From an uncultured Chloroflexia bacterium (GTDB lineage: Bacteria; Chloroflexota; Anaerolineae; Anaerolineales; Villigracilaceae), in NCBI GenBank assembly GCA_963840265.1, contig CAWIYA010000002.1, positions 612,289 to 676,288 on the forward strand: a DNA stretch of 64,000 bases, written 5' to 3'. The notes under the pieces are model-generated. The model had not been told where the DNA came from. It worked only from the letters and a program-made list of their open reading frames with translations, and did no database searches. Shown here piece by piece: positions 28,057 through 58,717 of the stretch. Every line of letters begins with the position of its first letter. Within the stretch, counting starts at the first letter, position 1. The position numbers and the translations under genes were made by a program.

Positions 28057-28890
28057 TTAGGGTGCCAAATCAAGGTCTTTAAAAGCTTCGACCTGAAACC
28101 GGATGGCGCGTTCGGTCGGGAGACGTTCAATGGATGATGCACCGAAGAAACCAACAATGCCGGGCATCTGCTTCAATGCCTTGCCAACATTCTCAGGCTC
28201 ATCAAATGGTCCTCCATGGCATATCACCATCAAATCCTTGCGAACAGACCACCCCGCTTCAGCGATAATCATCACCTTTTCGATGGCTTCTTCAAGAGTG
28301 AAGGCGACAGCCGCTCCTATACTACCGGCGGTGGTCAGGCCAACATGACCCACCAGCAGGTCGGCTCCGGCTTTGGTCATGGCTTTTGCTTCGTCTGCGG
28401 TGAAAGCGTAAGGTGTGGTGAATAGATCCATCTCGTGTGCAAGGCGGATCATTTCGACCTCTTTATCATAGCCCATGCCACTGGCCTCCAAATTGGCACG
28501 GAACTTGCCGTCGAACAAACCAACAGTCGGGAAATTTTGCACGCCTGAAAAGCCTATCTCTTTCAATTGTTTCAAAAAAACGGACATCAATCGAAATGGA
28601 TCGGTTCCACAAACTCCAGCTTGAACCGGGGTGTCCTTTACAACCGGCAATACCTCTGCTGCCATTTCGACAACAATGCCATTGGCATCGCCATATGGCA
28701 GTAATCCCGCGAGAGAGCCGCGGCCAGCCATCCGATAGCGTCCCGAGTTGTAAATGATGATGACGTCAGCACCACCAGCTTCGGCGAACTTTGCGGAAAT
28801 CCCAGTCCCTGCCCCACACCCAACGATCGGTTTTCCAGCTTTCACCTGGGTCTGCAGGCGCTTGATGATCTCTTTGCGTGAAATTGTCAT
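28057..28890 (-). CDS. phosphoenolpyruvate hydrolase-like TIM-barrel protein (PF09370 type; partner of Tm-1-like proteins)
   Basis: 277 aa. GCGAGTGISAKFAEAGGADVIIIYNSGRYRMAGRGSLAG resembles the PEP-mutase/isocitrate-lyase-like fold. It is a paralogue of 61301..62158. Confidence 0.7.
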   Translation of the reverse strand: MTISRKEIIKRLQTQVKAGKPIVGCGAGTGISAKFAEAGGADVIIIYNSGRYRMAGRGSLAGLLPYGDANGIVVEMAAEVLPVVKDTPVQAGVCGTDPFRLMSVFLKQLKEIGFSGVQNFPTVGLFDGKFRANLEASGMGYDKEVEMIRLAHEMDLFTTPYAFTADEAKAMTKAGADLLVGHVGLTTAGSIGAAVAFTLEEAIEKVMIIAEAGWSVRKDLMVICHGGPFDEPENVGKALKQMPGIVGFFGASSIERLPTERAIRFQVEAFKDLDLAP

Positions 28891-28902
28891 TGCGAATATC
28901 TC

Positions 28903-30114
28903 CTATTTTTCCAGCATGTTCAACAAGATTTGAGCTGCCCTGTCGGCGAATTCAGGATCATTTACATTATTGTCCATTTCTATGACCGGGATGCCCGGCC
29001 TGAGATTCTTTTTTATGGCCTCAAAACAGGCGCGATCTGCCTCTGGGTCCCAAAACGCACATCCGAGACTATCCAGTTGCGAAACTCCCTTGAGCGGGAT
29101 CAAGATGACAATCCAGGATGTGGCGGCGTTGGCAGCGGCAGCAATCATCCCCCCGATGCGCTTATTTTCTTCAGCGTTGGTACGCAGCAAAGTGATATTG
29201 GGATTCCATTGATACAAATTGCGGGACTTGAATTTATCGGGGACGGTTTCGATCCCCCAAAAGTTCGCCATATCCACGCAGCCCGGAACGAGAACTGCCG
29301 GGATGCCGGCGCGCGAGGCAGCCAGGCAGCGGTCGGGACCCGCGCTCAACACTCCTCCGCACACCTCATCGGCAAGCTCGGTGGTGGTGATGTCCAATAC
29401 TGCCGTAATATAGCCGTCGGAGATCAGACCTTCCATTGTCCTGCCTCCCGTGCCTGTGGCATGAAAGACCAAGACTTCATAACTGCGATTCTCCAGAACG
29501 CCACGCGCCCGATCCACGGCAAGGGTAGTATTTCCAAACATCGAGGCTGCGATCAATGGTTTCTCCTCGTCTCCTTTGACGGTTTTCATTTTTACCATTC
29601 CGGTAATTGCCCCCACGGCATTGCTATAGATGGTGCGGCTGATTCGATTGAAGCCAGCCACATCCACAATAGACGGAATGAAAATAATATCCCGGGTTCC
29701 GATGTAGGCACTGACATCCCCTCCACCCAGGGTGGACACCATTACTTTAGGAATGCCCACCGGCAGGCCGCGCATCGCCGCGGTCGTGAGGGATGTCCCA
29801 CCGCCACCACCCATCCCGATGATCCCATCCAACCTGCCCTCGTCGAAAAGGCGGCGAACAACCACAGTTAAGCCAGCCGCCATGACCCGCATGGCTTCAT
29901 CCTTATGGCCGCCGGAAGCCAGGAAGGATAAATCTCCACCGCCTGCTTTTGCCACTTCCTGGCGTGTAATATCTGGTGCAAAGGTGGGTTCCCCCAACAC
30001 ACCAAAGTCAATCACCAAGGTTCCGATATCTTCTTTCCGAATCAAGTCCTTTAGATAAGCAAATTCCTGACCTTTTGTGTCCAGGGCTCCGGTGATGACA
30101 ATCGTTTTGGTCAT
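28903..30114 (-). CDS. Tm-1-like ATP-binding protein (UPF0261 family), copy 1
   Basis: 403 aa. It has the N-terminal IVITGALDTKGQEFAYLKD and the MGGGGGTS motif. It is a paralogue of 37051..38289 and 60071..61291. Confidence 0.75.
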   Translation of the reverse strand: MTKTIVITGALDTKGQEFAYLKDLIRKEDIGTLVIDFGVLGEPTFAPDITRQEVAKAGGGDLSFLASGGHKDEAMRVMAAGLTVVVRRLFDEGRLDGIIGMGGGGGTSLTTAAMRGLPVGIPKVMVSTLGGGDVSAYIGTRDIIFIPSIVDVAGFNRISRTIYSNAVGAITGMVKMKTVKGDEEKPLIAASMFGNTTLAVDRARGVLENRSYEVLVFHATGTGGRTMEGLISDGYITAVLDITTTELADEVCGGVLSAGPDRCLAASRAGIPAVLVPGCVDMANFWGIETVPDKFKSRNLYQWNPNITLLRTNAEENKRIGGMIAAAANAATSWIVILIPLKGVSQLDSLGCAFWDPEADRACFEAIKKNLRPGIPVIEMDNNVNDPEFADRAAQILLNMLEK

Positions 30115-30125
30115 ATTACCTTCAT

Positions 30126-30884
30126 CTAGAAAAAAATTAGCAACAAAGCTGTAATTACCAGCAGAACAAGAATGATGTTATCGAAAATATTCTTCGATAC
30201 CTTGGTCACCAACCAGCGTCCAATCCAAACGCCAAATGGGACAATCGGGAACACCCATGCAACCTGCCAGAGCAGGTGGAAGTCGAACATTCCGGTAAAG
30301 AAGTAATATGGAACTTTGACCCAGTTGAGAATGGCATAGAACAAAACGGAGGTTGCAACGAATACTGCCGGAGTTACATCATGAAGCATGAGATAAATAC
30401 TAATAGGAGGCACGCCACTATGGGCCATTGCAGATGTAAAGCCTGACGTGGTTCCAGCCAACCAGCCATGCCAGTTTTTCTCCTGATATTTCACCGAACC
30501 GATGATACGCTTTTCGAGAAGCTTGTAAATAACAAATAACAATGCAATGATAGCCAGCCCGATCTTGAGCACTTGAGTGGAGACATTGGTTATGAAATAA
30601 GTACCGATTGTCACTCCTACTACTGCGCCTGGGATCAACAACCTGACCAACCGCCCGTTCCAGCGTTTCCAATGGAAAGCAATTGAGAACACATCCGCAA
30701 GCAACATAATAGGTAGCAACAAGCCAAGAACCTCATTTACAGGCATTACCAGCGCCATCAACGGCGTTGACAAGGTTCCCGCCATTCCACCCAATCCGCC
30801 TTTCGACAAGCTGACTAATAACGTGACGGCTGCAAGCATGATTAAAAATACAGTCGGATTATTTGTCATTATTTTTGGCTCCAA
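30126..30884 (-). CDS. TauE/SafE-family anion exporter-like membrane protein
   Basis: 252 aa, about 8 TM segments, Gly-rich helices (LSKGGLGGMAG). The start (30884 or 30869) overlaps the 3' end of the AOR gene. Confidence 0.65.
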   Translation of the reverse strand: MEPKIMTNNPTVFLIMLAAVTLLVSLSKGGLGGMAGTLSTPLMALVMPVNEVLGLLLPIMLLADVFSIAFHWKRWNGRLVRLLIPGAVVGVTIGTYFITNVSTQVLKIGLAIIALLFVIYKLLEKRIIGSVKYQEKNWHGWLAGTTSGFTSAMAHSGVPPISIYLMLHDVTPAVFVATSVLFYAILNWVKVPYYFFTGMFDFHLLWQVAWVFPIVPFGVWIGRWLVTKVSKNIFDNIILVLLVITALLLIFF

Positions 30885-32691
30885 GCGAATCCGAAATTCC
30901 TAGCTCATTCAACCGCAACAGGGTTGGAACGCCATTCATGTCCCATCCCATGATGCGATAGTATTCATCAAGCATTGGTTCAAGATCAACCACCTGCCCG
31001 CCGGCAGAACCAACAACCATTGGCTGAGTCAGGTTGCGAGCCGGCAGAGTATCTGCGGCACGGGAAAACCCTTCGCGGACATTGAACAGACGAGACAGGG
31101 TTGAGATGCGCTCCCCAAGTCGCTCCAAATCCGACACTTTGGGATAGTCAAAACCCGTCGCAGCCTTAACCAACTGCCACAATTCCTTGAGGGTCATCCC
31201 ATATCCGGGGAAAGCGCATAAACATGCACTATCCCAAACGGCTTTATCGGCCTGGTGATCGCGGAACAGCTGCGGTTTTCCTTCTATCGTCAGCGGATTG
31301 GCAGCCCCGCTAAATATCTCGCCCAGCGGGGCACCGCGCAGGTGACAGGCTCCGCGTTCAGAAACTGCATAAGCCAGCGCCGTACCCTTGGCCGCGTTGG
31401 GGTGATAGGCGGGCATTTCCAGCCCTTTGACATGCATTGCGAACGCCTCAATTTCAGGGAAGCGTTTTGCAATTGCAGCCACTCCCTGTACCAACCAAGT
31501 GCCACAGCCCTCACCTTTGGCCATTTTCTCTACCAGTGCAATTGCAGCATCTGCATTCCCCCAGGTTGGGGAAATTCCATCCAGTACATTTGAAGACACA
31601 ATGCTACGCTCGAACATCTCCATTATGAGACCGACCACACCGCCCACGCTGATCGTATCCAAACCATATTCATCGCACAGCCAATTAAGCCGGATAATTG
31701 CGTCACGGCTGCCGATGGCGCAGTTCGACCCAAGTGCATAGATGGTCTCATATTCCGGCCCCTCAATAACTTTGCCATCTTCCAGGGGTGAGGTCCATTT
31801 GCCACAACCGATCGGGCAACCAAAACAGGCATACTCATTTTTCCAGCTATTCTGCCGGAAGGCGTCGCCGGAAATCTCGTCCGACATATCAAACTGTCCC
31901 TGTTGGAAGTTGCGGGTGGGCAGCGCTCCCATGACATTGATCACCTCGAGGATGTTTGCCGTTCCCTCTTTGCGAAGCATGCTGACGGGACCAGACATGC
32001 GCACCGCCCGGAAGGCCAGCTGCAAGGCACGCTCGTATTGTTTTTTATCGTGGACGTGGACACTCCCGCTGCCACGAACGACGATGGCCTTGAGTTTTTT
32101 CGAGCCCATAACTGCACCAACCCCACCACGAGCCAATGCCCTGCTTTCGTTAAAGATCCCGGCAAGGTTACGCTGCGCCTCCCCGGGAGGACCGATCACC
32201 AGGGATTGCCATTCCTGTCCTAATTCAGTCTTAATTTTTTCTGTTGCCGCGGAGATGGTGGTACCCCACAGATTTTCGGCCGGACGGATTTCCACGCGGT
32301 CGCCATCGATGACCAGCATGACAGGGGTTTGAGCAGCGCCTGTTAGAACCAAGGCATCATAACCCGCATATTTAAACACGTTGCCCCAATAGCCTCCGCA
32401 GTAGGAATCGAAATAGGTGCCGGTGGCCGGGCTCTTGGTAGTCAGGCCGAAACGCCCTGCGGTAGGCGCTGTAGTACCAGTCAGTGGCCCGGTGTGGAAG
32501 ATCATGTGGTTTTCCGGAGAGAGTGGATCCACCCCAGCAGGTTGCTCAGTGAACAACAGCCAGGCTCCCAGCCCTTTACCGCCGAGAATCAGCGGCATTG
32601 CCTCTGCCGGCAAGGATGTAGTTTCAATGGATCCTGTGGATAAATTCACCCGCAAGATGCGGTCGCAGTATGCTCGTTGAGTTAGATCCAT
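30859..32691 (-). CDS. aldehyde:ferredoxin oxidoreductase family (tungsto/molybdopterin) enzyme
   Basis: 610 aa. The N-terminus ILRVNLSTGSIETTSLP...LGGKGLGAWLL is typical of AOR. The [4Fe-4S] motif CFGCPIGC plus a distal Cys (DSACLCAF) is present. Confidence 0.85.
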   Translation of the reverse strand: MDLTQRAYCDRILRVNLSTGSIETTSLPAEAMPLILGGKGLGAWLLFTEQPAGVDPLSPENHMIFHTGPLTGTTAPTAGRFGLTTKSPATGTYFDSYCGGYWGNVFKYAGYDALVLTGAAQTPVMLVIDGDRVEIRPAENLWGTTISAATEKIKTELGQEWQSLVIGPPGEAQRNLAGIFNESRALARGGVGAVMGSKKLKAIVVRGSGSVHVHDKKQYERALQLAFRAVRMSGPVSMLRKEGTANILEVINVMGALPTRNFQQGQFDMSDEISGDAFRQNSWKNEYACFGCPIGCGKWTSPLEDGKVIEGPEYETIYALGSNCAIGSRDAIIRLNWLCDEYGLDTISVGGVVGLIMEMFERSIVSSNVLDGISPTWGNADAAIALVEKMAKGEGCGTWLVQGVAAIAKRFPEIEAFAMHVKGLEMPAYHPNAAKGTALAYAVSERGACHLRGAPLGEIFSGAANPLTIEGKPQLFRDHQADKAVWDSACLCAFPGYGMTLKELWQLVKAATGFDYPKVSDLERLGERISTLSRLFNVREGFSRAADTLPARNLTQPMVVGSAGGQVVDLEPMLDEYYRIMGWDMNGVPTLLRLNELGISDSLGAKNNDK

Positions 32692-32700: not shown

Positions 32701-34026
32701 CTACTCCCGCACCGGGTTAAAATTCGGCCTATCGGCGATGAATATCGCCCCAGTGGGACAGATGCCTGCGCACTCAGGTTTGCCCCTGCACAGATCACAG
32801 ACCACCGGGAACCAGTCTAGCTGTCGTCCATCATCGAAGATAAGACTCCCTTCCGAATGAATAATCACATGTGTTGGGCAGATGTCCACACATTTGGAGC
32901 AATTGTCACAGCGTTCGGGGATCAATTCCACTGCGCCACTCTCAAGGTGCCACCGCAAGGCGTTGGTTGGGCAAATATCGATGCACTTTTTACAAATGGT
33001 GCAGAACATGACCTTATGGTGCCCGGGCTGGCTGCCCAACTGAATCCGCAGGCGCGCTTGATTGAGTCCATAGTCACCGTTGCCGTGGCTGGCTACGCAG
33101 GCTCCCACACATAAATCGCAGCCTGTACACAAGGCAGGCCTGGCTTTCAAGCGCACGAAATCCCAGGTTTTCCCGCGTAAGGCTTCATCCACCGTCCAGC
33201 CGCGATGGCCAATATTGCTGAGTTGTTCGATCATCGCTTTAGGATCCGGAGATTTGGTCACATTACGCCCCATCAAGCAACCGGATGCTCCAGCTTCATG
33301 GGCCTCAGCGTATAGTTCAAGTGCGTCGCGCTCGTTATCTGAACGAGCGCCACCCAGCACCAGGGTGGGTACACCACTGATATCAATCAGGTTTCGGAAT
33401 GAATCCACGTCCCCCGTGTATGGGATCTTGAGAGCGTCAGCTCCGATCTCCACCGCCATGCGGGCTCCCAGGGTAAGAATCTCAACAATATTTGCACCGG
33501 TTACCTGTCCCCCGTACGCCAACGGCTCAATGATACAAGGCAACCCGATCCGGCGGCACTCATTGACGAATTTGGCACACTTATCGATGCCGATGGTCTC
33601 CACTTTATCGCTGTATCCCAAAAACAAATACACCGTGATGGCAGTGGCACCTAATGACAAAGCCTGTTCTGCGGTGATAATTTTCTCATTGATCAGCAAG
33701 CGCTGAGGGACGGCATTACTCACGTTCGAAGTGCCCAAGCGGGGCATATTCATCCAGTCGGCGCGGACTATCAAAGCGGGACCAGCGCGCCCTTTGAATA
33801 GGGGAGCCAAACGAAGAGCTTGTCCGGGAGACAGCAGAATCCCATCCACACCGCCAGCTATCACCGCCTCAACGGTCGCGCGCAGGTTGACCACATTTGG
33901 CGTTACATCACTCATATAGCCATGATCCGCTGCCACGCAAATGGCGCGGCCATCCCCCTGGTGGTTGAACAGCCGGTCCATCCGGTTTTGCAGCCCTGTT
34001 TTCATTTCACGAAACCTCATGGGCAT
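32701..34026 (-). CDS. class I aldolase (DhnA/ADH-synthase type, DeoC/LacD superfamily) fused to a C-terminal polyferredoxin
   Basis: 441 aa. The aldolase motifs are DGRAICVAADHG, LGATAITVY, GADALKIPYTGD (Schiff-base Lys), LGGAR and MGRNV. These are followed by four cluster motifs: CTGCDLCVGAC, CTICKKCIDICP, CDNCSKCVDICP and CDLCRGKPECAGICP. Confidence 0.8.
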   Translation of the reverse strand: MPMRFREMKTGLQNRMDRLFNHQGDGRAICVAADHGYMSDVTPNVVNLRATVEAVIAGGVDGILLSPGQALRLAPLFKGRAGPALIVRADWMNMPRLGTSNVSNAVPQRLLINEKIITAEQALSLGATAITVYLFLGYSDKVETIGIDKCAKFVNECRRIGLPCIIEPLAYGGQVTGANIVEILTLGARMAVEIGADALKIPYTGDVDSFRNLIDISGVPTLVLGGARSDNERDALELYAEAHEAGASGCLMGRNVTKSPDPKAMIEQLSNIGHRGWTVDEALRGKTWDFVRLKARPALCTGCDLCVGACVASHGNGDYGLNQARLRIQLGSQPGHHKVMFCTICKKCIDICPTNALRWHLESGAVELIPERCDNCSKCVDICPTHVIIHSEGSLIFDDGRQLDWFPVVCDLCRGKPECAGICPTGAIFIADRPNFNPVRE

Positions 34027-34780
34027 GCACCAAGTGCTTCATAATTAGCAGCACTGTGCTAGGATCTTCAACTGCGAATATGCCTTCATCAAGCCAGAAA
34101 CCGACTGCTCCAAGCTGCAGGGCTTCTGCGAGAATGGGTTGATTAGATTCCAGGCTGACAGTTCTGACCCATACCGGCAGGCCGCTGCACATGGCTTGGA
34201 TGGTCTTAAAGGATTGCGCTTCAGGCCAGGGAATGATGATGCCATCGGCACCGCCCTCAAGAGCATAAGAGACGCCCAGTTCGATGGCTTTTTTCATCAG
34301 GACTATACGCGGACCAACAGGCTGGACGTCCACCAGCAACGGCATGCCAATCTTGAGCCCGTCCAACGCCAAATTGACCACCTCCTGAATACAACGGGCT
34401 TCTATCTCCTCCTCATGACCAAGGATAAAATGCATCACCAGGGCGTTAGCGCCAAGGTCCAAGGCATCCGCGGGGTTGAGAAGTGGAATATATTGGATCA
34501 TTTCAGGCGGCAGGACGAAGTCAGTCCCACGCAGGGCATTGGTCCAATCTGCACGAATAAGGAGAGCGGCTTCCTGTCGAGTCCGAGTTCCCAGTTTACG
34601 CGCCTGCCCGGGACTGGTGACGATCCCATCCAAAAACGGCAATAACGGGCGGACAGATTCTTCGAAATGTTCCAATCCTGGAAGTACACCCAGAACCAAA
34701 CCATTGCTGGTATCCAAAACCAGGCTGTGCCCATCTGAAGAATTAAGCAACTCATTCAAGCGGTATTGTTTACTATTCAT
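34007..34780 (-). CDS. DhnA-type aldolase-like protein lacking the Schiff-base lysine (probably non-catalytic paralogue)
   Basis: 257 aa, colinear with the aldolase domain of 32701..34026. It reads GADGIIIPWP where the neighbour has GADALKIPYTG, and LDTSNG where the neighbour has AADHG. It overlaps the neighbour by 20 nt. Confidence 0.6.
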   Translation of the reverse strand: MNSKQYRLNELLNSSDGHSLVLDTSNGLVLGVLPGLEHFEESVRPLLPFLDGIVTSPGQARKLGTRTRQEAALLIRADWTNALRGTDFVLPPEMIQYIPLLNPADALDLGANALVMHFILGHEEEIEARCIQEVVNLALDGLKIGMPLLVDVQPVGPRIVLMKKAIELGVSYALEGGADGIIIPWPEAQSFKTIQAMCSGLPVWVRTVSLESNQPILAEALQLGAVGFWLDEGIFAVEDPSTVLLIMKHLVHAHEVS

Positions 34781-36060
34781 ACTTCTCCTCGCAAATAGGG
34801 AATCGTTTGCGGTCCTTCAGGAATGACACATATACGAGCCTGCGAACCGTACTTCGCTTGCAATTGTAAGACAGTTTGCTCAATGTTTCGAGTGGGTATG
34901 AACAACGCCTGCTCGATCTGCCGGTCTGTCAGACCATCACTGTAAACGTACACATCTGCCCGGTGTTGAATTTGAGCCTGGATTTGCACTTGCCACTGGT
35001 CCTGTTCACAGAACCCGGGAATGGAGATCATGTCAATCACACCTTGCGGGGAGCCAGCCTTAACCAGCAAGGCTGCATACCGCCCGTGATTGGGTAAACC
35101 GTCCTCGCAGGCTGCCGCCATTAGAATACTTCCCGCGTCTCGAACGATCTGGTTTGCAGCACTCATGCCTTTCACGGATTGATAAAGATTTTGATCCAAT
35201 GGATAGCCACTATTGGTGGTTATCACAATATCGTAAGGTTTGTCCACCGCGCGCATGGCGTTCTCTCTCACAAATGCGCAACCCTCTGCATGAGCGGAAA
35301 GCATGTCGCCTGCAAAGATGCCAGTAATCTCGCGTTTAACATTGAGGGACACATTCAGCAGGAAGGATGGATTTGTGCGCAATGCCACGGCGCGCATTTC
35401 CTCCCAGATGGGATTCCCTACAAGAACTCCCCAGGTCGCCTTGGGGTGAGCGATCATTTCAAGCCCGTGATTGGTAAAGACACTCTCTGCTCCCGAAAGC
35501 GAGGGAATTACAGCCTTGGGTCCGCCGCTAAACCCGGCAAAAAAATGTGGTTCAATAAAGCCAGTCAGGATGCGAACATCAGCTTCAAGATATGAGCGAT
35601 TGATACGCACCGGATGTCCCAATGAAGTGTCCCCCAGATTAACAAGGTTAGTTTTATCGTTGCAGTCATGCTGGAGACAGCGGTACCCATCCACGATGCG
35701 ATCGCCGAGCATGGCGCGCAACTCGTCTTTGGTTTGCGGACGGTGCGTTCCCAGTCCATTCAACAGTGTGATGTTCTCCCGCGCAATTCCTGCCGACTCC
35801 AATTCAACGAGCAGGACGGGGAGGATGCGATCATTGGGGGTGGCGCGGGTGATGTCGGTATGAACCACCACAACCTGGTCGCCAGGTTTGACAAGTTCTG
35901 CCAAAGGAGGAGATCCAATCGGATTGCGCAAAGCTTCCTGCAGAGCCTCAATCTCATTGGGTAAACCTGGCAAGAAGCGCGGCGCCAAAACGTCCGTTGT
36001 GTCGGGGAGCGTTACGTTCAGACCATAGCGGCCATAAGCCAATTTAATATGCATTGCCAT
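34777..36060 (-). CDS. LarA-family (nickel-pincer cofactor dependent) 2-hydroxyacid racemase/epimerase homologue
   Basis: About 427 aa. It has a DUF2088-type N-terminus with NGLGTHRP and the FAGFSGGPKAV motif, which includes the Lys at the cofactor-tether position. The start is uncertain (36060, 36054 or 36099). Confidence 0.75.
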   Translation of the reverse strand: MAMHIKLAYGRYGLNVTLPDTTDVLAPRFLPGLPNEIEALQEALRNPIGSPPLAELVKPGDQVVVVHTDITRATPNDRILPVLLVELESAGIARENITLLNGLGTHRPQTKDELRAMLGDRIVDGYRCLQHDCNDKTNLVNLGDTSLGHPVRINRSYLEADVRILTGFIEPHFFAGFSGGPKAVIPSLSGAESVFTNHGLEMIAHPKATWGVLVGNPIWEEMRAVALRTNPSFLLNVSLNVKREITGIFAGDMLSAHAEGCAFVRENAMRAVDKPYDIVITTNSGYPLDQNLYQSVKGMSAANQIVRDAGSILMAAACEDGLPNHGRYAALLVKAGSPQGVIDMISIPGFCEQDQWQVQIQAQIQHRADVYVYSDGLTDRQIEQALFIPTRNIEQTVLQLQAKYGSQARICVIPEGPQTIPYLRGEV

Positions 36061-36120
36061 TAAATGGGACACGGATTGGCATGGACCATCATCGCACAAT
36101 CCGTGTCCAGGGTTCCAAAC

Positions 36121-39236: not shown

Positions 39237-39351
39237 TTCGTACCTCCTTTAAACAGAATGAATTTGGATAGGATGTAATCAAACTTAGTGTTACTCCACA
39301 ATTATGATAAAAACGCGGCATCCATAGATTTTGGAATGCCTCGCCTATATC

Positions 39352-48630: not shown

Positions 48631-48640
48631 GATACCCTCC

Positions 48641-51679: not shown

Positions 51680-52741
51680 TTACGGCTGAAGGCGGTCCCC
51701 GTTCAGCCCAAAATAGTGGATATGTTCATATGCAATATCAAACTTCATCACATCACCGATATGGTAAGTGGTTATTCCTGGAACCAGGCTAAGCAAGGTG
51801 CGCTGCCCTGACTGGATATGGAGGATGGTTTCAACCCCAAGTGGTTCGGCAAGAACAAGTTCCCCAGTAAATCTGCCGTTCAAATCAGGTTTGACATTCT
51901 CAGGACGGATCCCCAACATGAATTCCGAAGGCAGCTTACTCCCACCTGGAGAAGGTAGGAGTACATCACTCTCATTGATGGATGTGACCTCATTCTCGTT
52001 CCGGGCGTTGTATAGATTAATACGGGGGGAGCCAACCAATTGAGCAATAAAGGTCGATGCTGGCCGGTCGTAGATGTCTTCCGGCGTACCTACCTGGATT
52101 AAACGCCCCTCGTTCAAAACACCGATGCGGTCAGCCATGGTAAGCGCTTCGATCTGATCGTGGGTCACAAACAGCGTGGTGCTGCCCTGGGTTTTCTGTA
52201 AATGCTGCAATTCAATCCGCAAGGCTTCCCGCAACTTCGCATCCAGGTTGGATAAGGGTTCGTCCATCAGGAAAACACGCGGTGAGCGGACGATTGCCCG
52301 TCCAATGGAGACACGCTGCATTTCGCCACCCGATAGATGGGCAGTCTTGCGCTTCAGAAGGTGGGAGATTCTTAACTTGTCGGCAGTCTCTTCCACTTTT
52401 TTTCGGATCTCCTCTGCAGACTTGCGCCTCAAAGGGGAGCGGAGCGGAAAAGCCAGGTTGTCATAGACGGACATGGTTGGATAGAGCGAGTATTGTTGGA
52501 ACACAAGGGCAACATCACGATCCGAAGGTGCTAGGTTATCTACTGCTTCACCATCGTAGAGTATGGAGCCCGAATCCTGGTGTTCCAAACCCGCGATCAC
52601 ACGTAATGTGGTCGTTTTTCCCGCTCCTGTGGGGCCCAACAGGACAAAGAATTCTCCATCTTTGACATCAAAAGAAACATCTTCCAGCGCGGTAACGCCT
52701 GGAAAGGTTTTACCTATTTGCTTAAGTTCTATGTGACTCAT
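51680..52741 (-). CDS. ABC transporter ATP-binding protein (MalK/UgpC-like), copy B
   Basis: 353 aa. It has Walker A GPTGAGKTT, the signature LSGGEMQR, Walker B FLMDEP, and a C-terminal regulatory/TOBE-like domain. Confidence 0.9.
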   Translation of the reverse strand: MSHIELKQIGKTFPGVTALEDVSFDVKDGEFFVLLGPTGAGKTTTLRVIAGLEHQDSGSILYDGEAVDNLAPSDRDVALVFQQYSLYPTMSVYDNLAFPLRSPLRRKSAEEIRKKVEETADKLRISHLLKRKTAHLSGGEMQRVSIGRAIVRSPRVFLMDEPLSNLDAKLREALRIELQHLQKTQGSTTLFVTHDQIEALTMADRIGVLNEGRLIQVGTPEDIYDRPASTFIAQLVGSPRINLYNARNENEVTSINESDVLLPSPGGSKLPSEFMLGIRPENVKPDLNGRFTGELVLAEPLGVETILHIQSGQRTLLSLVPGITTYHIGDVMKFDIAYEHIHYFGLNGDRLQP

Positions 52742-53835
52742 TGGGTCACCTCTGGTTTGCAGGCAACTTCCGTCTTTGGATTAAAGAAGCGTACCATTTG
52801 GGGGTTAATGTCAAAATGTACCAAGGTATCAATGGGATAGGAGATCACACGATCCGTGCGGATATGGATAATATCGTTCTCATTGATCGTCAGGTGAAGG
52901 ACAGCAGAGGAACCCTGCATCTCGCTGGCATACACTTTACCTACCAATTTACCCCGATCATTGATCTGGGCAGCTTCGGGCCGAAAACCGACAATGATCT
53001 CGCTCCCACCATCCAGGCCTTTGATTAATGAACTTTGCCATCTTTGCGGAACATCATAGCGATTATCCAAGCCAGCCATTTGAATGACTCTATCGGAATA
53101 TTTGCCAGAGATAAGATTCATGCCCGGACTGCCAATGAAACGCGCCACAAACAAGTTGGCAGGATTATTGTAAACCTCAGACGGGGTGCCGATTTGCTGG
53201 ATTGCAGCTTCGGACATAACCACAATGCGATCACCCATTGCCATGGCCTCAACTTGGTCATGCGTAACGTATACCGTGGTGGCACGTTGAAGAACATGCA
53301 GGCGTTTAATTTCAGAGCGCATCGACTCGCGAAAGTCAGCGTCGAGAGCTCCCAACGGTTCATCCATTAAGAATGCTGCTGGTCTGCGCACCAACGCGCG
53401 CGCAAGCGCAACACGCTGCTGATCTCCGCCGCTTAACTGACCAGGGTGCGCCTTGAGCACATGCTCGATCTGCAGCAATTTCACCACCTCATCGACACGC
53501 TTTTCCACTGTCTCGTGTGATTCTCCCTGCGCCTGGAGGGGGAAAGCGATATTTTGACGGGCGGTAAGGTGGGGGTAAAGTGCATAGAATTGGAAAACAA
53601 AAGCGATATCCCGTTCAGCGGGATGCAGCCAGGTTACATTTCGCCCATTCAGCCATATCGTCCCCCCCGAGACTGTCTCCAGCCCGGAGATCATGCGCAA
53701 GGTGGTGGTCTTGCCGCAACCGGATGGACCCAGCAGGACGATAAACTCCCCATCCTGGATGGTCAGATCCAGCGGCTTTACAGCGTGAAGGTCGCCAAAT
53801 TTTTTTTCGACTTGCCGGAGTTCAATCGTGGACAT
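52738..53835 (-). CDS. ABC transporter ATP-binding protein (MalK/UgpC-like), copy A
   Basis: 365 aa. It has GPSGCGKTT, LSGGDQQR, FLMDEP and a C-terminal TOBE-like domain. It overlaps the next ATPase gene by 4 nt. Confidence 0.9.
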   Translation of the reverse strand: MSTIELRQVEKKFGDLHAVKPLDLTIQDGEFIVLLGPSGCGKTTTLRMISGLETVSGGTIWLNGRNVTWLHPAERDIAFVFQFYALYPHLTARQNIAFPLQAQGESHETVEKRVDEVVKLLQIEHVLKAHPGQLSGGDQQRVALARALVRRPAAFLMDEPLGALDADFRESMRSEIKRLHVLQRATTVYVTHDQVEAMAMGDRIVVMSEAAIQQIGTPSEVYNNPANLFVARFIGSPGMNLISGKYSDRVIQMAGLDNRYDVPQRWQSSLIKGLDGGSEIIVGFRPEAAQINDRGKLVGKVYASEMQGSSAVLHLTINENDIIHIRTDRVISYPIDTLVHFDINPQMVRFFNPKTEVACKPEVTQ

Positions 53836-53862: not shown

Positions 53863-54861
53863 TTACTTGCGGACAGCGCCAAAGGTAACGCCGCGCAATA
53901 AGTAATTCCGCAGTGCGAACGTGACGATCACTACGGGGATCAGGAAGCCCAGGCTTCCAGCAGCTATCGCTGACCATTCCAGGCCGCCGCTTCCAAGCAT
54001 CGTGGCAATACTGGGTGGTGCCGTGCGTGCCTTGTCGCTGGTGAGCATGAGCGCAAAGGCATACTCATTCCACGCAAAGATCAGACAAAAGACAGTCGTT
54101 GCGGCGATCCCGTTCACAGCCTGGGGCAGGACAATCCTAAAGAATGCCTGCAGGCGGGTATAGCCATCCACCAGGGCAGCCTCTTCATACTCGACCGGGA
54201 TCTCGTCAATGAACCCTTTAAGCAACCAGACTGAAAAGGAGAGGTTAAAAACGGTATATAGAATGATCATCCCAATATGCGTATCGTTCCATCCCAACTG
54301 TTTGTACAACAGAAAAAGCGGAATGGTTACCACAACTCCTGGCAACATGCGAGTACTCAGAATAAAGAATAACAAGTCATCTTTTCCTGCAATTTTGAAA
54401 CGACTGAAAGCATAAGCGGCAAACAATCCCAGAATCACTGAAAGGATCGTCGAAGTGCCGGCAATGATCACAGAGTTTTTCAACCGATTCACATAGTCAC
54501 TGGTACCTGTGATCTGCTGCCCATTCGCAAGTGCAAGCCGTTCCCAATAGCCCAAATTTCCTGGATTGGCTTGCGCAGCTGTCAGGTTGGCTGGAGAAAG
54601 CAAGGCGCGGTCAGTAAACAGGTAAAGGAAACCCTCCAGGGTGGGGTGAAAGAATACTTTGGGGGGTGGGGTGGTGATCGTGGCGCGGGATTTGAAGGCA
54701 GTCATGACCATCACGATGACGGGAATCAACATGATGAAGGTCACGATCACGACGATGACCACCCTTATGGATCTTCCCAACTTGGCACGCGGGTGAACCT
54801 TGTCAACTCGGGTTGGTTCGACAACAGGCATTCGGGGACCAGTTTCTTCAAAGTGAGCCAT
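53863..54861 (-). CDS. carbohydrate ABC transporter permease (MalG-like)
   Basis: 332 aa. The EAA loop is EEAALVDGYTRLQAFFRIVLP. Confidence 0.85.
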   Translation of the reverse strand: MAHFEETGPRMPVVEPTRVDKVHPRAKLGRSIRVVIVVIVTFIMLIPVIVMVMTAFKSRATITTPPPKVFFHPTLEGFLYLFTDRALLSPANLTAAQANPGNLGYWERLALANGQQITGTSDYVNRLKNSVIIAGTSTILSVILGLFAAYAFSRFKIAGKDDLLFFILSTRMLPGVVVTIPLFLLYKQLGWNDTHIGMIILYTVFNLSFSVWLLKGFIDEIPVEYEEAALVDGYTRLQAFFRIVLPQAVNGIAATTVFCLIFAWNEYAFALMLTSDKARTAPPSIATMLGSGGLEWSAIAAGSLGFLIPVVIVTFALRNYLLRGVTFGAVRK

Positions 54862-54864
54862 GGC

Positions 54865-55818
54865 TTAACCCTCCCCTTTGCTTTGATTGAGGTACTTGAT
54901 ATACAAGTTGCTGACTGCAATAATGATGATCAGGATGATATATGCCAGCGCGCTGGCAGGGCCGGTGCGGAATTGCCCCAGGAAGGCGATGCGGTAAATG
55001 TCGACGGAAATCAATTCCGTCTGGACACCCGGTCCCCCACCGGTCATGCCCATCACCAGGTCAAATGATTTAAATGCCTCGATGGTACGAAAAAGGATGG
55101 CGATCAATAATAAGGGTGCAACCTGCGGCAAGGTAATGCGCCAGAATTGGAACCACGAACTGGCGCGGTCAACAGCAGCAGCTTCGTACAGGTAGTCAGG
55201 AATTGCTTTTAAACCTGAGAGAACCAATAACATTACGAACGGTGCCCACATCCATACATCCACAATCACCACGGCAATTAAAGCCAAGCCAGGAACCGGG
55301 TGACCGCCAATCCGGCTGGCCAGCCAATCTGGGGATTTGGATGGGTCACTCAAGCCAAGCAGGGCATTAAAAAAACCGAAGGTGGGGTTGTACATCAATT
55401 TCCAAAATAAACCCACGACCACCGGTGAGATCATCATGGGTATCAGGATCAGCGTTGTTAAAATACCGCCGCCCTTGAATTTTTCGCGCACCAGCATTGC
55501 CAGGCTAAAACCCACGAGAACCTGGAGGGTGACCGACATCAAGGCATAACGTCCAGTGGTAGCGAAATATTGCCATAAATTCTTATCATTCAGGATATTA
55601 TTGAAGTTCTGGAAGGCTACCCATACCGGGGCCTTTTGTGCAATTGCGGAGTAATTGGTGAAGCCAAGATACAGGCTGTAAAACAATGGGAAGACGTTCA
55701 TCGCGATCAGGAGCAATAGCGTCGGCCAGATGAACAGGTTGACAATCGCCCGATTGCTGAGATGGCGCTGGCGAACTTTGGGACTTGGACCTCTCAATTG
55801 AGATTCACTCACAGACAT
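54865..55818 (-). CDS. carbohydrate ABC transporter permease (MalF-like)
   Basis: 317 aa. The EAA loop is YEAAAVDRASSWFQFWRITLP. Confidence 0.85.
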   Translation of the reverse strand: MSVSESQLRGPSPKVRQRHLSNRAIVNLFIWPTLLLLIAMNVFPLFYSLYLGFTNYSAIAQKAPVWVAFQNFNNILNDKNLWQYFATTGRYALMSVTLQVLVGFSLAMLVREKFKGGGILTTLILIPMMISPVVVGLFWKLMYNPTFGFFNALLGLSDPSKSPDWLASRIGGHPVPGLALIAVVIVDVWMWAPFVMLLVLSGLKAIPDYLYEAAAVDRASSWFQFWRITLPQVAPLLLIAILFRTIEAFKSFDLVMGMTGGGPGVQTELISVDIYRIAFLGQFRTGPASALAYIILIIIIAVSNLYIKYLNQSKGEG

Positions 55819-55848
55819 AATCCTGCCTCTTTCTTGGCGGCTTTTGTT

Positions 55849-55874
55849 GGGGAGGCGGCTTCCGCCGCCTCCCC
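55849..55874 (-). other. intercistronic GC-rich stem-loop between the binding-protein and permease genes
   Basis: Perfect 11-bp stem GGGGAGGCGGC/GCCGCCTCCCC with a TTCC/GGAA tetraloop and no T-run. Confidence 0.65.
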
Positions 55875-55913
55875 ATTTAGTTATTAAAAGGTTACTTAAG
55901 TAGCAATGTCGGC

Positions 55914-57314
55914 TTAGGGGATGACACCATCTGCTTTCAACGCAGCGGTCTGTTCGCGGGCGATGTTATCCAAGGCCTCTTTTGCTGTGCCTTGTCCACC
56001 AACAACAAAGGCGCTCAAATAATTTTGCGAGGGAGTAAGCAGCGCAGCGTAGGTTGGGATGTTCCAGAAGTCCATGACGAAGGTCATGGTCTCGGAGAAG
56101 GCCGGGTTGTAAGGCGTTGCATTCATGAACGTGTCGCTCTTGAGCACGTTCGAGTTGCAGGTATAGCCTCCAAGCTTGGCCCATTCCAACTGGATACTTT
56201 CCTGTGCAAACCACTTGATGAAGTCAAGGGATGCCTGCTGGCGTTCAGGACTGACAAAGGAGATGACACTTAGGCCCTGACCACCGAGAGCTGCAGCGCG
56301 TTTTCCGCCTGGGCCAGCAGGATTGGCGAAGAAACCGGTACCAGCTGCAAAGGGGTTGGTGCCTGCATTGGCAAGCGCCGGAAGGAAGGCGAAGTAGTTC
56401 ATGGTCATCGCCACCTGGCCACCAATGAAGGCGTCATTGGTTTCAGTGTAGAAGGCGTTGTTCAAGCCGGGCGCCTGGCAGCAATCGTACAGGTCTTTGT
56501 AGTACTGCAGAGCACTAACCATATCAGGAGAGTTAACCACACCCTCGACGGTATTATCTGCAGCCTGCCACGCACCGCCCCAGGAGAACATCACGTTCTC
56601 AAAACCCATCGTGATGGCATCATAATCTTTCTGGGTATAGATTGCCACACCGTTCATGCTTCTGTCCGGTTTGGTAAAGAATTTGGCGATGTCCATCAAT
56701 TGAGCCCAGGTAGTCGGAACGGCGAGATCATAGCCGTATTGGGTCTTGAAGGCAGCCATATTGGCAGGATCCTCAAAGAGATCCTTGCGATAAGCCCAGC
56801 CATCGGCGTCACCTTCGGTCGGGTAGCCATAATACTTGCCAGAGCCAGCCGGATATTCGCCGTAGTACTTCAGGGTGGCAGGTGTGACGGTCTTGTCGAT
56901 CCCATTGCTCTTCATGAAGTCGGTCAGGTCAACATAGTACCCTGCGGTCGCGCCCTGGCCAATCCACTGGCTGTCACCAACGACCATATCCCATGCGTCA
57001 CCGCCGGCAGCCATTTCGACGTTGAACCGGTCACCGAACGAACCCCAAGGTTCTTGAATGATGTTAACCTTGATGCCGGTTGCTGCCTCGTACATGTTGC
57101 CGATCTGCTGCAAGTAGTCTGCCGGGGACCACTGTGCCCACAAGATATTCAATTCTTTGACGGAAGAGGCAGCAGGCGGTGTTGTTGGTTGAGCAGCCGG
57201 CGGTTGAGTTGCGCCTCCAACGGGCGGCACAGTCGTAGCTGTAGCAGCAGGACCGCAGGCTGATAAAACCATTACCAGGATAAGCGTCAGTGCAAATGCA
57301 TATTTCTTAAACAT
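55914..57314 (-). CDS. extracellular solute-binding lipoprotein (CUT1 sugar ABC family)
   Basis: 466 aa. The lipobox is VLSAC, followed by a Pro/Thr/Ala linker and a family-1 SBP body. Confidence 0.85.
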   Translation of the reverse strand: MFKKYAFALTLILVMVLSACGPAATATTVPPVGGATQPPAAQPTTPPAASSVKELNILWAQWSPADYLQQIGNMYEAATGIKVNIIQEPWGSFGDRFNVEMAAGGDAWDMVVGDSQWIGQGATAGYYVDLTDFMKSNGIDKTVTPATLKYYGEYPAGSGKYYGYPTEGDADGWAYRKDLFEDPANMAAFKTQYGYDLAVPTTWAQLMDIAKFFTKPDRSMNGVAIYTQKDYDAITMGFENVMFSWGGAWQAADNTVEGVVNSPDMVSALQYYKDLYDCCQAPGLNNAFYTETNDAFIGGQVAMTMNYFAFLPALANAGTNPFAAGTGFFANPAGPGGKRAAALGGQGLSVISFVSPERQQASLDFIKWFAQESIQLEWAKLGGYTCNSNVLKSDTFMNATPYNPAFSETMTFVMDFWNIPTYAALLTPSQNYLSAFVVGGQGTAKEALDNIAREQTAALKADGVIP

Positions 57315-57472
57315 GTTTTATTTTCTCCTCTTGAATTGTGAAAGGGGTTATAGAACAAGAATTTGTGGGCTATTGGTTTAATTTATTTTCGTTCACCTCC
57401 TTATAGGAGAACACTTCATAACTTGATTGGTATTTGCGGCCAACTAAATTGGCACAAAAAGAAGAATATTGC

Positions 57473-58717
57473 TTACGAAACAAGCGCGCCCACAATATCA
57501 GGTTGCGCCAGGATCGCTTGGTAGACCGCCGCGACGCCTCCCATCACACAGGCGTCAGAGGCATGGCGAGCCAACACCAATTGCATGGCTTCACGATTCC
57601 ATTTCAAGGCACGCTGCTCCACTTCCTTTTTTATAACGGGCATCAAAAAATCACCCGCCAGGCTGAGGATCCCGCCGAACACGACAAGTTCAGGGTTCAG
57701 GGCATTCACCAGGGAGGCAATGCCAATCCCCAGGTGACGTCCGATGATCTCCAATGCATCCAGGGCAACAGCATCTCCAGCACGAGCCGCCTCCACGATA
57801 AATGGAACAGTCAAGGAATCCCGACTCCCGCCAGTCATTTCATACAACTTGCTGACCTCGCCTTGAGCGATACGTCTCCAAACGTGGCGAAAAAGCACAT
57901 CCTGGCTCACTTGGGTTTCCCAACAACCCTGATTACCGCACTTACAGATCTCCCCATCCGGGTCTAATGTCATGTGCCCAAACTCTGCGCTGACGCCGGA
58001 TGCTCCGCTGAACATTCGGCCTGCATGTACAATCCCTCCACCCAAGCCAACACCTGCGCTTATATAAAGCACTTCTTCAAATCCCTGTGCTGCACCAAAG
58101 TAATGCTCTCCCAGGGCAGCAATATTTGCCTCGTTGTCAACAAACAGGGGCACATTGAATGATTTCTGAATGATGGAGCGTATGGGAAGATCCTTCCACC
58201 CTAGGTTGGGGGCAAACAACAATGCTCCTGTCGCCTGGTCGACCAGTCCAGGGACTCCAACTGAGATACCCAGCAATGGTCCACATGAAGAACAGCCCGC
58301 CTCAATTGCCCGATTCAAAATAACCAGCATCCGATCAAGAATCGCATGCTGGCTTAGAGTTCGATCAAATTGCTCCTGATAGCGCCAAATGGTCTTTGGG
58401 GAGAAATCTGTACAAATTACCAGAATAAAATATGTCCCGATTTCGCAACTGACAATAAATCCCGCAGTGGGGTTTAATTTTAATAAAATCGCGGGGCGCC
58501 CCGAACTGGGGGAAGCAAGGCCAATTTCTTCCACAAATTGTCTCTCAATCAATTCATTCACCAGGCTTGAAACCGTTGTCTTGTTCAACCCCGTGGTTTC
58601 CGCAAGAGCAGCCCGCGAGATTGGCGCGTATGTTCGCAAGTGATTCATAATCACCGAAAGGTTGATTTCGCGAACTAGGGCTTGATCACCGGTGCGATAT
58701 TGGTTTTGAGTAACCAT
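57473..58717 (-). CDS. ROK-family transcriptional regulator
   Basis: 414 aa. It has an N-terminal winged HTH (ISRAALAETTGLNKTTVSSLVNEL), a ROK sugar-kinase-like body, and the Zn motif CKCGNQGCWE. Confidence 0.85.
   Translation of the reverse strand: MVTQNQYRTGDQALVREINLSVIMNHLRTYAPISRAALAETTGLNKTTVSSLVNELIERQFVEEIGLASPSSGRPAILLKLNPTAGFIVSCEIGTYFILVICTDFSPKTIWRYQEQFDRTLSQHAILDRMLVILNRAIEAGCSSCGPLLGISVGVPGLVDQATGALLFAPNLGWKDLPIRSIIQKSFNVPLFVDNEANIAALGEHYFGAAQGFEEVLYISAGVGLGGGIVHAGRMFSGASGVSAEFGHMTLDPDGEICKCGNQGCWETQVSQDVLFRHVWRRIAQGEVSKLYEMTGGSRDSLTVPFIVEAARAGDAVALDALEIIGRHLGIGIASLVNALNPELVVFGGILSLAGDFLMPVIKKEVEQRALKWNREAMQLVLARHASDACVMGGVAAVYQAILAQPDIVGALVS

Follow-up and report, generated by a model that had tools for sequence, protein, structure and literature searches.

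A candidate layered sugar-catabolic gene array with an aldolase-polyferredoxin fusion in uncultured Anaerolineae

Introduction

The window analysed here is a stretch of 64,000 nucleotides from an uncultured Anaerolineae bacterium, corresponding to positions 612289–676288 of contig C2 in a 3.5-Mb metagenome-assembled genome (MAG; G000) that consists of four contigs and is 91% complete. From position 58717 down to position 28057 its minus strand carries 27 consecutive genes, a split PfkB kinase gene being counted once, which are numbered g01 to g27 in that order. We narrowly favour a reading of this array as a layered sugar-catabolic supra-operon, in which modules have been inserted between a pair of genes for a TIM barrel and a Gfo/Idh/MocA dehydrogenase (g09 and g10) and a gene for a TauE permease (g25). 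All enzyme families in the array are already known. Short contigs nearly identical to window DNA occur in 2024 soil metagenomes. Below, G-numbers denote genomes and L-numbers the loci that were compared.

Several described systems resemble parts of the array. In the levoglucosan loci of Bacillus smithii and Paenarthrobacter, lgdA-lgdB1-lgdB2-lgdC are accompanied by genes for an ABC importer and by a regulator of the ROK or LacI family (PMC7676230, PMC10066097). The sulfo-Embden-Meyerhof-Parnas (sulfo-EMP) cluster of Arthrobacter contains an ABC importer, the Gfo/Idh/MocA gene SqgA and TauE (PMC8873060). In the multi-subunit tungsten aldehyde oxidoreductases AorABC of Aromatoleum aromaticum (8C0Z) and WOR5 of Pyrococcus furiosus (6X6U), and in the Fe-S subunit/AOR pair of 9MQX, a catalytic subunit of the aldehyde:ferredoxin oxidoreductase (AOR) family is found with a four-cluster polyferredoxin. 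The ydj cluster of Escherichia coli encodes a ketose kinase, YdjH, and provides for aldol cleavage of the 1-phosphate; the RefSeq product names are L-glycero-L-galacto-octuluronate kinase for YdjH and L-glycero-L-galacto-octuluronate-1-phosphate aldolase for YdjI. YdjH phosphorylates its ketose at C1. Finally, racemases of the LarA type include that of L. plantarum (5HUQ) and a broad-spectrum enzyme (9EID), and known LarA systems have the cofactor genes LarB, LarC and LarE.

The sulfo-EMP clusters of E. coli (yih) and Arthrobacter correspond to the array one-to-one by enzyme class, with an isomerase, a PfkB kinase, a class I aldolase of the DeoC/LacD superfamily, aldehyde oxidation and TauE. 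The array is likewise without a classical sulfoquinovosidase (YihQ/GH31), in that no glycoside hydrolase (GH) domain occurs in it, the genome as a whole not having been searched for YihQ. A sulfo branch formed part of the initial annotation, which was made from the sequence alone. However, orthology is found at none of the steps compared (the sulfofructose-phosphate aldolase YihT, the sulfofructose kinase YihV and the NAD-dependent sulfoquinovosidase SqgA), the aldehyde step here would use a ferredoxin-linked AOR instead of an NAD enzyme, and TauE goes with the dehydrogenase/TIM pair, not with the aldehyde step.

Conservation and modularity of the array

The initial annotation described a co-directional array of 27 genes, and this extent was confirmed. 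The median gap at the 26 junctions is 21 nt, and 23 of the gaps are shorter than 100 nt. Three junctions (g05/g06, g15/g16 and g21/g22) have 4-nt overlaps and three more have longer ones. The gene order given earlier is also right, except that two UPF0261 genes, a creatininase-family gene and the gene for a 154-amino-acid membrane protein had not been listed, and that the last gene is not TauE but one for a phosphoenolpyruvate (PEP)-hydrolase-like TIM barrel. Same-strand runs of 26–32 genes occur three times elsewhere in the genome, among ~870 runs in a crude genome-wide gene call; this ranking is approximate because the gene caller cut the array at a spurious antisense open reading frame (ORF). 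The genome has six AOR paralogues, a single xylAB pair and only three permease sets of the CUT1 type. The array therefore counts among the organism's very few loci for sugar import.

The idea that the array acts as a unit gains from comparison with relatives, since its order is kept in six other Anaerolineae genomes. The order of g01–g25 is identical in G001–G005, of which G004 and G005 lack g08 only, and in G104 the genes g06–g23 are found on one 26-kb contig (C304; L065, contig shared with L004). Mean identity of the array proteins to those of G000 is ~87% in G104, ~73% in G004 and ~70% in G005. Over a 333-amino-acid core of RpoB the identity to G000 is 98% in G003, 96% in G002, 94% in G001, 85% in G004, 82% in G005 and 80% in G104. 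Both flanks of the array vary, with an IS66 transposase gene after TauE in one relative, a P-type ATPase gene there in another, and different genes upstream. Since the order is kept to ~70% protein identity while the flanks change, the array is not a product of chance. The array of G104 is more alike than its RpoB, which indicates either lateral transfer of the block or a mis-binned contig in this 380-contig MAG. The distribution is patchy, as 12 genomes sampled from the family to which the window belongs yielded neither g10 nor g23.

G003 contains two copies of the RpoB core (C38 and C84) that are 98% and 94% identical to the G000 copy. This MAG is therefore probably a mixture of two strains.

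Compact versions show which parts can be separated. G121 has the ABC genes with g09, g10, g07 and g08 and no other array gene. The order in L024 is g10, PfkB, a XylA-like gene, the aldolase/AOR unit (described below) and TauE. In L026 it is TIM barrel, LarA, g10, MFS, XylA-like gene, TauE, lyxose isomerase, PfkB and the unit. G122 has g17, g18, g19, g20, g09, g10, a TIM isomerase, an FGGY kinase, a TIM barrel, a Gfo gene and TauE, with no aldolase or AOR. Genes g16–g21 are absent from L024 and present in L025, although downstream genes are common to both.

At three loci in another family of the order (L057, positions 7625–11921; L058; L060), g09 and g10 are followed by a TauE-like gene whose product is 34–35% identical to g25; in L057 an MFS transporter gene lies between g10 and the TauE-like gene. 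The kinase, aldolase and AOR of the array were not among the matches at these g09-g10-TauE loci. Since g09/g10 and TauE stay together across loci, the other genes appear to have been inserted between these two ends, which lends support to the earlier view of a functionally coherent array. TauE had been taken for an exporter of the AOR product; its linkage shows that it is tied to whatever g09 and g10 act on instead.

The aldolase, polyferredoxin and AOR unit

The unit consists of three genes, encoding a paralogue of DhnA-type aldolases (g22), a class I aldolase fused to a polyferredoxin (g23) and an AOR (g24). The latter aligns over its full length (residues 10–601) with P. furiosus AOR (PDB 1aor, 435 bits). 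The aldolase domain of g23 matches MJ0400 best (104 bits), followed by archaeal class I fructose-bisphosphate (FBP) aldolases (75–79 bits) and LsrF (65 bits). By comparison, E. coli YihT reaches 27 bits (25% identity over 195 amino acids), g22 does not match YihT, and no YihT-type model is among the NCBIfam matches of the lower-array proteins, g22 and g23 included. Residues 275–432 of g23 match AorA (8c0z_C, E = 2e-13), the small subunit of WOR5 (6x6u_B), 9mqx_E and MvhB. The combination of an AOR-family catalytic subunit with a four-cluster polyferredoxin is shared with AorABC, WOR5 and 9MQX. However, the polyferredoxin is here fused to the aldolase, and g24 is nearest to P. furiosus AOR. The domain of an AorC-type FAD/NAD subunit is found in no array gene (the scan covered the array only).

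Relatives of g23 are encoded at 43 loci in a collection of species-representative genomes, all of them from Anaerolineae/Chloroflexota MAGs. A g22-type gene precedes the g23 relative at every one of these, and an AOR gene directly follows the pair at 36, most of the others stopping at a contig edge. The Schiff-base lysine (GAD-x-x-K motif) is retained in 27 of 27 g23-type copies, whereas each of the 27 full-length g22-type copies carries A, I, V, S or T in its place. For this reason g22 is not classed as the catalytic member, and of the "aldolases" named earlier one stands, the polyferredoxin-fused class I enzyme, while the other is a paralogue that lacks the lysine. At L036 (10233–11045), L037 (6495–7349) and L040 the aldolase is free-standing, 270–284 amino acids long and without the polyferredoxin. 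No AOR follows it in L036 and L040, where DUF4432 and URO-D-like genes are found instead. Because these two loci have neither, the polyferredoxin domain and the AOR appear to be gained or lost together. The adjacency at 36 of the 43 loci, the AorA/WOR5-like fused domain and the situation in L036 and L040 give good support to the earlier suggestion that the product of a class I aldolase passes to a ferredoxin-linked AOR. Alongside its six AOR paralogues, G000 has MoaC and a single aldolase-polyferredoxin gene.

A structural model of g22 in complex with the aldolase domain of g23, built with custom alignments, scores 0.73, against 0.00 for the best control. This mark is attained by 58 of 80 solved complexes and by 2 of 110 mismatched pairs. 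Contact agreement between runs is at least 87%, and the partner pLDDT at least 87. Judged by this model, g22 and g23 probably form a hetero-oligomer.

Outside the array the unit is found in at least three other gene contexts. One (context B) has a LacI regulator, a FucI-like isomerase, a class II PF01116 aldolase/epimerase, an FGGY kinase and DUF4432. The FGGY kinase scores 271 bits with the xylulokinase model, 163 with that of fuculokinase and 68 with that of rhamnulokinase. In another (context C) an ABC importer, a GH38 mannosidase and a 397-amino-acid PfkB kinase lie on the upstream side, and DUF2961, a pair of URO-D-like and B12-binding proteins, LarA, XylA and GH3 or GH5 lie downstream. 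In context D a lyxose isomerase and PfkB precede the unit. A sugar kinase, PfkB or FGGY, is thus located immediately upstream of the unit in most of the other contexts, which agrees with a ketose-phosphate substrate. No description of an aldolase-polyferredoxin-AOR unit was found in the literature searched. The same holds for the placement of this unit, together with xylAB and a YdjH-like kinase, in between a TSUP permease and a dehydrogenase/TIM pair. A literature search for AOR in connection with lactaldehyde and rhamnose returned nothing.

A [NiFe]-hydrogenase large subunit is encoded upstream of the unit at two loci. In L009 (6318–7745) it is VhuA-like and lies just 5' of the aldolase pair; in L023 the same ORF family is found ~9 kb upstream. 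These positions suggest hydrogen as the sink for AOR electrons. At L027 and L030 (e.g. L030, 14155–17032) the unit is part of a polysaccharide locus with GH38, DUF2961 and GH3 or GH5, and the URO-D-like protein beside a B12-binding protein in L030 could hint at demethylation of methylated sugars. The FucI-like isomerase of context B (L005, 3172–4641) has SftI, a sulfoquinovose isomerase, as its sole NCBIfam match, at 75 bits against a cut-off of 700, a likeness of superfamily and not of orthology.

Regulator, importer and dehydrogenase genes

The first layer of the array (g01–g11) starts with a ROK regulator and a CUT1 importer, behind which two Gfo/Idh/MocA proteins and two PF01261 TIM barrels (283 and 334 amino acids) are encoded. 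Levoglucosan loci are alike in having a ROK regulator, a binding protein, two permeases, an ATPase, TIM barrels of ~275–280 and ~325–330 amino acids and two Gfo/Idh/MocA proteins. They differ from the array in that they have one ATPase gene where the array has two (g05 and g06, 40% identical to each other), in that the host is here a member of the Anaerolineae, and in that the array runs on into xylAB, a YdjH-like kinase and the aldolase-AOR unit. In composition, g07–g10 match the levoglucosan-type set for oxidative C–O cleavage. The nearest structures to g10 are 4h3v (307 bits) and levoglucosan dehydrogenase (LGDH; 6a3f, 287 bits), whereas SqgA (8qc2) scores 43 bits. With the D-psicose 3-epimerase model g07 reaches 197 bits, the cut-off being 300. 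From such homologies the module appears to be a distant relative of levoglucosan and 3-keto-glycoside systems.

No glycoside hydrolase domain was detected among the 27 array products, whose domains were assigned with Pfam and NCBIfam. This had been noted in the initial annotation. To regard it as a gap in the pathway is not supported, given the composition of g07–g10.

The solved structures nearest to the binding protein g02 are maltose/trehalose-binding proteins, and a sulfoquinovose-binding protein such as SmoF is not listed among its matches. As a guide to the substrate, g02 gave no useful lead (84 bits to MalE3).

Sugar isomerases and kinases

The second layer (g12–g15) begins with xylAB, whose two products exceed the cut-offs of their models; g12 is the sole xylA of the genome. 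It is followed by a PfkB kinase gene, g14, which is frameshifted, as reported before. Compared with the copy in L033, a T3 run near 43250 contains one additional base, and the gene is a single ORF of 313–318 amino acids in relatives. The frameshift may be an assembly error; none of the soil short-read contigs (four DNA runs, 151–440 nt) spans it. A search of solved structures places g14 closest to YdjH of E. coli (122 bits). In direct comparisons g14 is 31% identical to YdjH (129 bits), while YihV scores 46 bits. A PfkB kinase acting upstream of the aldolase had been envisaged, and this fits the proximity of g14 to YdjH, whose partner aldolase takes a 1-phosphate. The ydj cluster is further matched by a YdjI-like class II aldolase, 33% identical, that is encoded at 63116–64000 in an operon divergent from the array. 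However, the aldolase adjacent to AOR is of the class I DhnA type and not YdjI, and the aldehyde product would here be oxidised with ferredoxin. The XylA paralogue g15, with 345 amino acids, is shorter than its solved class I matches (382–394).

Proposed pathway

What was observed directly is the gene content of the array with its conservation and modularity, the homologies, and the joint occurrence of polyferredoxin and AOR; the reactions and substrates given below are inferred from these. The ROK regulator and the CUT1 importer (g01–g06) would control and bring in a sugar. The set g07–g10 would open an anhydro- or glycosidic C–O bond of this sugar by oxidation at C3, beta-elimination, hydration and reduction, so that no glycoside hydrolase would be required. 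XylA and XylB (g12, g13) could provide the ordinary 5-phosphate route for the freed aldose, while the XylA paralogue g15 and the YdjH-like kinase g14 would give a ketose 1-phosphate. This would be split by g23, in a hetero-oligomer with the lysine-less g22, into dihydroxyacetone phosphate (DHAP) and a free aldehyde. AOR (g24) would dock on the polyferredoxin fused to the aldolase and oxidise the aldehyde to an acid, passing the electrons to ferredoxin. LarA, the flavin/Fe-S pair (g16 and g17), the UPF0261 kinases, the creatininase-like hydrolase and the PEP-hydrolase-like barrel may carry out accessory steps on acid or keto-acid products. The first catalytic activity of a UPF0261 protein, an ATP-dependent kinase, was reported in 2025 (PMC12624787).

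The free aldehyde could be lactaldehyde, which fits the LarA linkage and a neighbouring FAD/Fe-S fusion gene; glyceraldehyde, which fits the mannosidase and mannose-isomerase contexts of the unit; or glycolaldehyde from xylulose 1-phosphate, which fits XylA, the lyxose isomerase and the GlcD/GlcF-like pair. Sulfolactaldehyde is the least likely, since TauE is the sole feature that supports it and the TauE linkage points elsewhere.

A number of observations weigh against a single layered pathway. Against NF052479, the NCBIfam model of levoglucosan dehydrogenase, g10 reaches 352 bits in a full-length alignment and so falls far short of the cut-off of 650. In a sample of 151 genomes from the order, orthologues of g10 (57–93% identical) are present in 22 and the aldolase fusion in 3; in most genomes, therefore, layer 1 functions in the absence of layer 3, and in this array too each layer could have a substrate of its own. 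The kinase g14 is frameshifted in the present assembly. Searches of G000 (91% complete) detected none of LarB, LarC and LarE. A U-tailed hairpin after g17 may split transcription, and the favourable model of g22 with g23 may mirror their likeness to the many-chain crystals of MJ0400 and archaeal FBP aldolase.

A more far-reaching conjecture, which we consider unlikely, is that the block from g09/g10 to TauE constitutes one undescribed anaerobic pathway. It would combine hydrolase-free opening of a sugar derivative through NAD-dependent oxidation and elimination, isomerisation, phosphorylation at C1 and cleavage by a hetero-oligomeric aldolase in physical connection with a tungsten AOR, so that the aldehyde would never be released. 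Electrons would go to ferredoxin or hydrogen, and the hydroxy acid would pass to a LarA that functions independently of the known LarBCE route to the cofactor.

Alternative explanations

The alternative that fares best is a special case of the layered reading and not exclusive of it. A 6-deoxy ketose 1-phosphate would be cleaved to DHAP and lactaldehyde, AOR would form lactate, LarA would interconvert its L- and D-forms, and a flavin/Fe-S dehydrogenase, either g16/g17 or a convergent 946-amino-acid fusion (25107–27947), would yield pyruvate. We regard this 6-deoxyhexose route as possible, though rather doubtful. It is favoured by g21, which passes a lactate racemase model. Like the L. plantarum and broad-spectrum LarA enzymes, g21 keeps the motifs, with GTHRP, IEPH, SGGPK and HG positions retained and His, Lys and His aligned to 9eid, and its nearest solved structures are lactate racemases. 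Of the 43 aldolase/AOR loci, 15 include LarA, which occurs there in three distinct arrangements. The convergent FAD/Fe-S fusion gene adjoins the array, and fusions are also found beside it in L006, L010 and L033; the G122 variant has one too, 25% identical.

Other evidence argues against this route. No orthologue of RhaA/B/D or FucI/K/A is encoded in the array, and the FGGY kinase near the unit in context B is best matched by xylulokinase, not by fuculokinase or rhamnulokinase. The unit also occurs with a GH38 mannosidase and with a lyxose/mannose isomerase and PfkB, which points to ordinary hexoses or pentoses. Known LarA systems differ in their cofactor genes, which were not detected in G000, as described above. 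LarC in particular was not found in G001–G005, in any of the 12 sampled genomes of the window's family, or in 9 of the 10 other genomes with LarA beside the unit (G001–G005 and G157–G160), and it is missing from 20 of 41 Lar_N-positive genomes in the order sample. This weakens any step that needs an active nickel-pincer racemase, and the LarA step of the initial annotation is thus in doubt despite the linkage and the cofactor motifs. The earlier label of D-2-hydroxyacid oxidase is in doubt for g16. Among its PDB matches, alkyl-DHAP synthase (185 bits over nearly the whole length) is nearer than any D-lactate or glycolate dehydrogenase, LctD scoring 135 bits and D-lactate dehydrogenase 130 bits.

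The UPF0261 and creatininase-family genes g19 and g20 were considered as a substitute for LarBCE. This candidate was rejected, since LarC is also lacking from the genomes of L027 and L030, where neither g19 nor g20 lies near LarA.

Alternatively, the array could be a catabolic island of several unrelated sugar operons on one strand, held together by descent and sharing no common pathway. The occurrence of layer 1 alone in G121, and in 19 genomes without the aldolase fusion, is consistent with this, as are the other contexts of the unit, the variable presence of g16–g21 (L024 and L025), the possible terminator after g17 and the fact that xylAB are ordinary equivalogs. Set against these are the retention of the full order at ~70% protein identity while both flanks change, the short gaps and the lack of a strong internal terminator. 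In addition, g09/g10 are reunited with some genes of the lower array in three independent compact rearrangements, of which L024 and L026 add PfkB, a XylA-like gene, the aldolase/AOR unit and TauE, and G122 adds g17–g20, an isomerase, a kinase and TauE. The island therefore appears improbable.

An inositol-type route has less in its favour. According to Rodionova et al. 2013, the inositol route of Thermotoga maritima is reportedly built of ROK, ABC, Gfo/Idh/MocA, TIM, creatininase-family and PfkB families. A corresponding cyclitol route here would use two Gfo/Idh/MocA enzymes to form a diketone, followed by ring opening by the creatininase-family protein, a TIM epimerase, a kinase and an aldolase. 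The array does have a ROK regulator, an ABC system, two Gfo/Idh/MocA proteins, TIM barrels, a creatininase-family protein and a PfkB kinase, and IolG, IolE, IolN, IolO and IolC are best or near-best NCBIfam names. However, all scores are far under the equivalog cut-offs (IolN 87 of 245, IolO 140–155 of 300, IolG 98 of 355, IolC 92 of 300 bits), g09 and g10 are much nearer to levoglucosan and 3-keto-glycoside enzymes, and the compact versions L024 and L026 are without g18–g20, which makes such a route very improbable.

Least tenable of all is sulfoglycolysis, by which sulfoquinovose or its glycoside would yield sulfofructose 1-phosphate, then DHAP and sulfolactaldehyde, with oxidation by AOR to sulfolactate and export by TauE: the one-to-one correspondence of steps by enzyme class, the TauE/TSUP permeases that accompany known sulfoquinovose clusters, that of Arthrobacter included, and the SftI match of the context-B isomerase have to be set against the scores for YihT, YihV and SqgA, the maltose/trehalose-like binding protein, TauE beside g09–g10 at loci without kinase, aldolase or AOR, and the failure to find, in the literature searched, a paper tying AOR to sulfolactaldehyde.

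Transcription signals and neighbouring genes

The positions of the array genes and of the hairpins are collected in Table 1. The hairpin after g27 is terminator-like, and nothing comparable is found inside the array except the weak one after g17. Like the binding-protein gene, g10 has a strong stem-loop without a U tail 3' of it. Scans of the array for consensus promoters and terminators found about as many as in shuffled sequence, and a search for a common operator word in ten larger gaps returned trivial 10-mers only. A U8 run after xylB was considered as a terminator and rejected, as there is no hairpin (z = 0.25).

Upstream of g01, a divergent plus-strand operon occupies 59227–64000 and runs on to position 679498 of contig C2 (L052, 303–3498), sharing a promoter region of 509 nt with the ROK gene. 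It encodes a TIM barrel, a UPF0261 protein, a PEP-hydrolase-like barrel, an Fmt-like formyltransferase and the YdjI-like class II aldolase, followed beyond the window by the E2, E1-alpha and E1-beta genes of a 2-oxoacid dehydrogenase complex.

Table 1. Genes and hairpins of the array, in window coordinates
Feature	Position	Strand	Matches and remarks
g01, ROK-family regulator, N-terminal HTH, NagC/Mlc-like	57473..58717	-	Pfam ROK and HTH; NagC model 236 bits, under cut-off
g02, CUT1 solute-binding protein	55914..57314	-	SBP_bac_8/1
Strong stem-loop, no U tail, between binding-protein and permease genes	55848..55875	-	12-bp GC stem, z = -4.4
g03, g04, two ABC permeases	53863..55818	-	BPD_transp_1; MalF/MalG- and GlcT/GlcU-like
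g05, g06, two MalK/UgpC-like ABC ATPases, 4-nt overlap	51680..53835	-	ABC_tran and OB_MalK/TOBE
g07, TIM barrel, 283 aa, ketose-3-epimerase-like, LgdB1 size	50807..51658	-	AP_endonuc_2
g08, Gfo/Idh/MocA oxidoreductase, in LgdC position of levoglucosan loci	49670..50776	-	
g09, TIM barrel, 334 aa, 2-hydroxy-3-keto-glucal hydratase homologue	48641..49645	-	PDB 2zds 446 bits; 8ro4 134 bits
g10, levoglucosan-dehydrogenase-like Gfo/Idh/MocA, predicted 3-dehydrogenase	47422..48678	-	
g11, hydrophobic membrane protein, 154 aa	46905..47369	-	No family match; same position kept in G001–G005
g12, xylose isomerase, class I	45643..46854	-	TIGR02631 569 bits, cut-off 447 exceeded
g13, xylulokinase	44085..45581	-	TIGR01312 574 bits, cut-off 380 exceeded
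g14, PfkB kinase, YdjH-like, two frames	43020..43977	-	Frames 43225–43977 and 43020–43289
g15, XylA paralogue, 345 aa	41911..42948	-	TIGR02631 210 bits, under cut-off; class I XylA structures ~167 bits
g16, FAD-linked oxidase-family flavoprotein	40469..41914	-	4-nt overlap with g15
g17, Fe-S/CCG-domain partner of g16	39352..40467	-	Fer4_8 and CCG; weak LdhH, TfrB and GlpC matches
Hairpin and U-rich tail after g17, possible internal terminator/attenuator	39285..39351	-	z = -2.5
g18, TIM barrel, IolO/ketose-epimerase-like	38349..39236	-	NF041099 140 bits, cut-off 300
g19, UPF0261, MarK-family ATP-dependent kinase fold	37051..38289	-	
g20, creatininase-family hydrolase	36121..37047	-	PF02633; IolN model 87 bits, cut-off 245
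g21, LarA-type racemase homologue	34777..36099	-	NF033504 503 bits, cut-off 460 exceeded
g22, DhnA-type aldolase paralogue, no Schiff-base lysine	34007..34780	-	
g23, class I DhnA/MJ0400-type aldolase fused to AorA-like polyferredoxin	32701..34026	-	
g24, AOR, P. furiosus AOR type	30859..32691	-	AFOR_N 244 bits, AFOR_C 404 bits
g25, TauE/SafE (TSUP) permease	30126..30884	-	PF01925 113 bits
g26, second UPF0261 protein of the array	28903..30114	-	
g27, PEP-hydrolase-like TIM barrel, last array gene	28057..28890	-	PF09370 410 bits
Likely array terminator, 13-bp hairpin, then U-rich tail UUAUUAUU	27985..28056	-	z = -4.5

Implications

For annotation, the linkage of g25 carries a warning that a TauE gene by itself is weak evidence for sulfonate metabolism. 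LarA homologues in genomes without the nickel-pincer cofactor genes raise a concrete question. The aldolase pair with its fused polyferredoxin and AOR is a defined and portable gene set, and the levoglucosan-type oxidative module is now placed in the Anaerolineae. These bacteria are abundant in soils, sediments and digesters, and since few have been cultured their sugar metabolism is mostly inferred. The array suggests a way in which such anaerobes might use sugars whose cleavage yields a reactive, non-phosphorylated aldehyde, which would be oxidised in place with ferredoxin, not reduced to a diol or oxidised with NAD.

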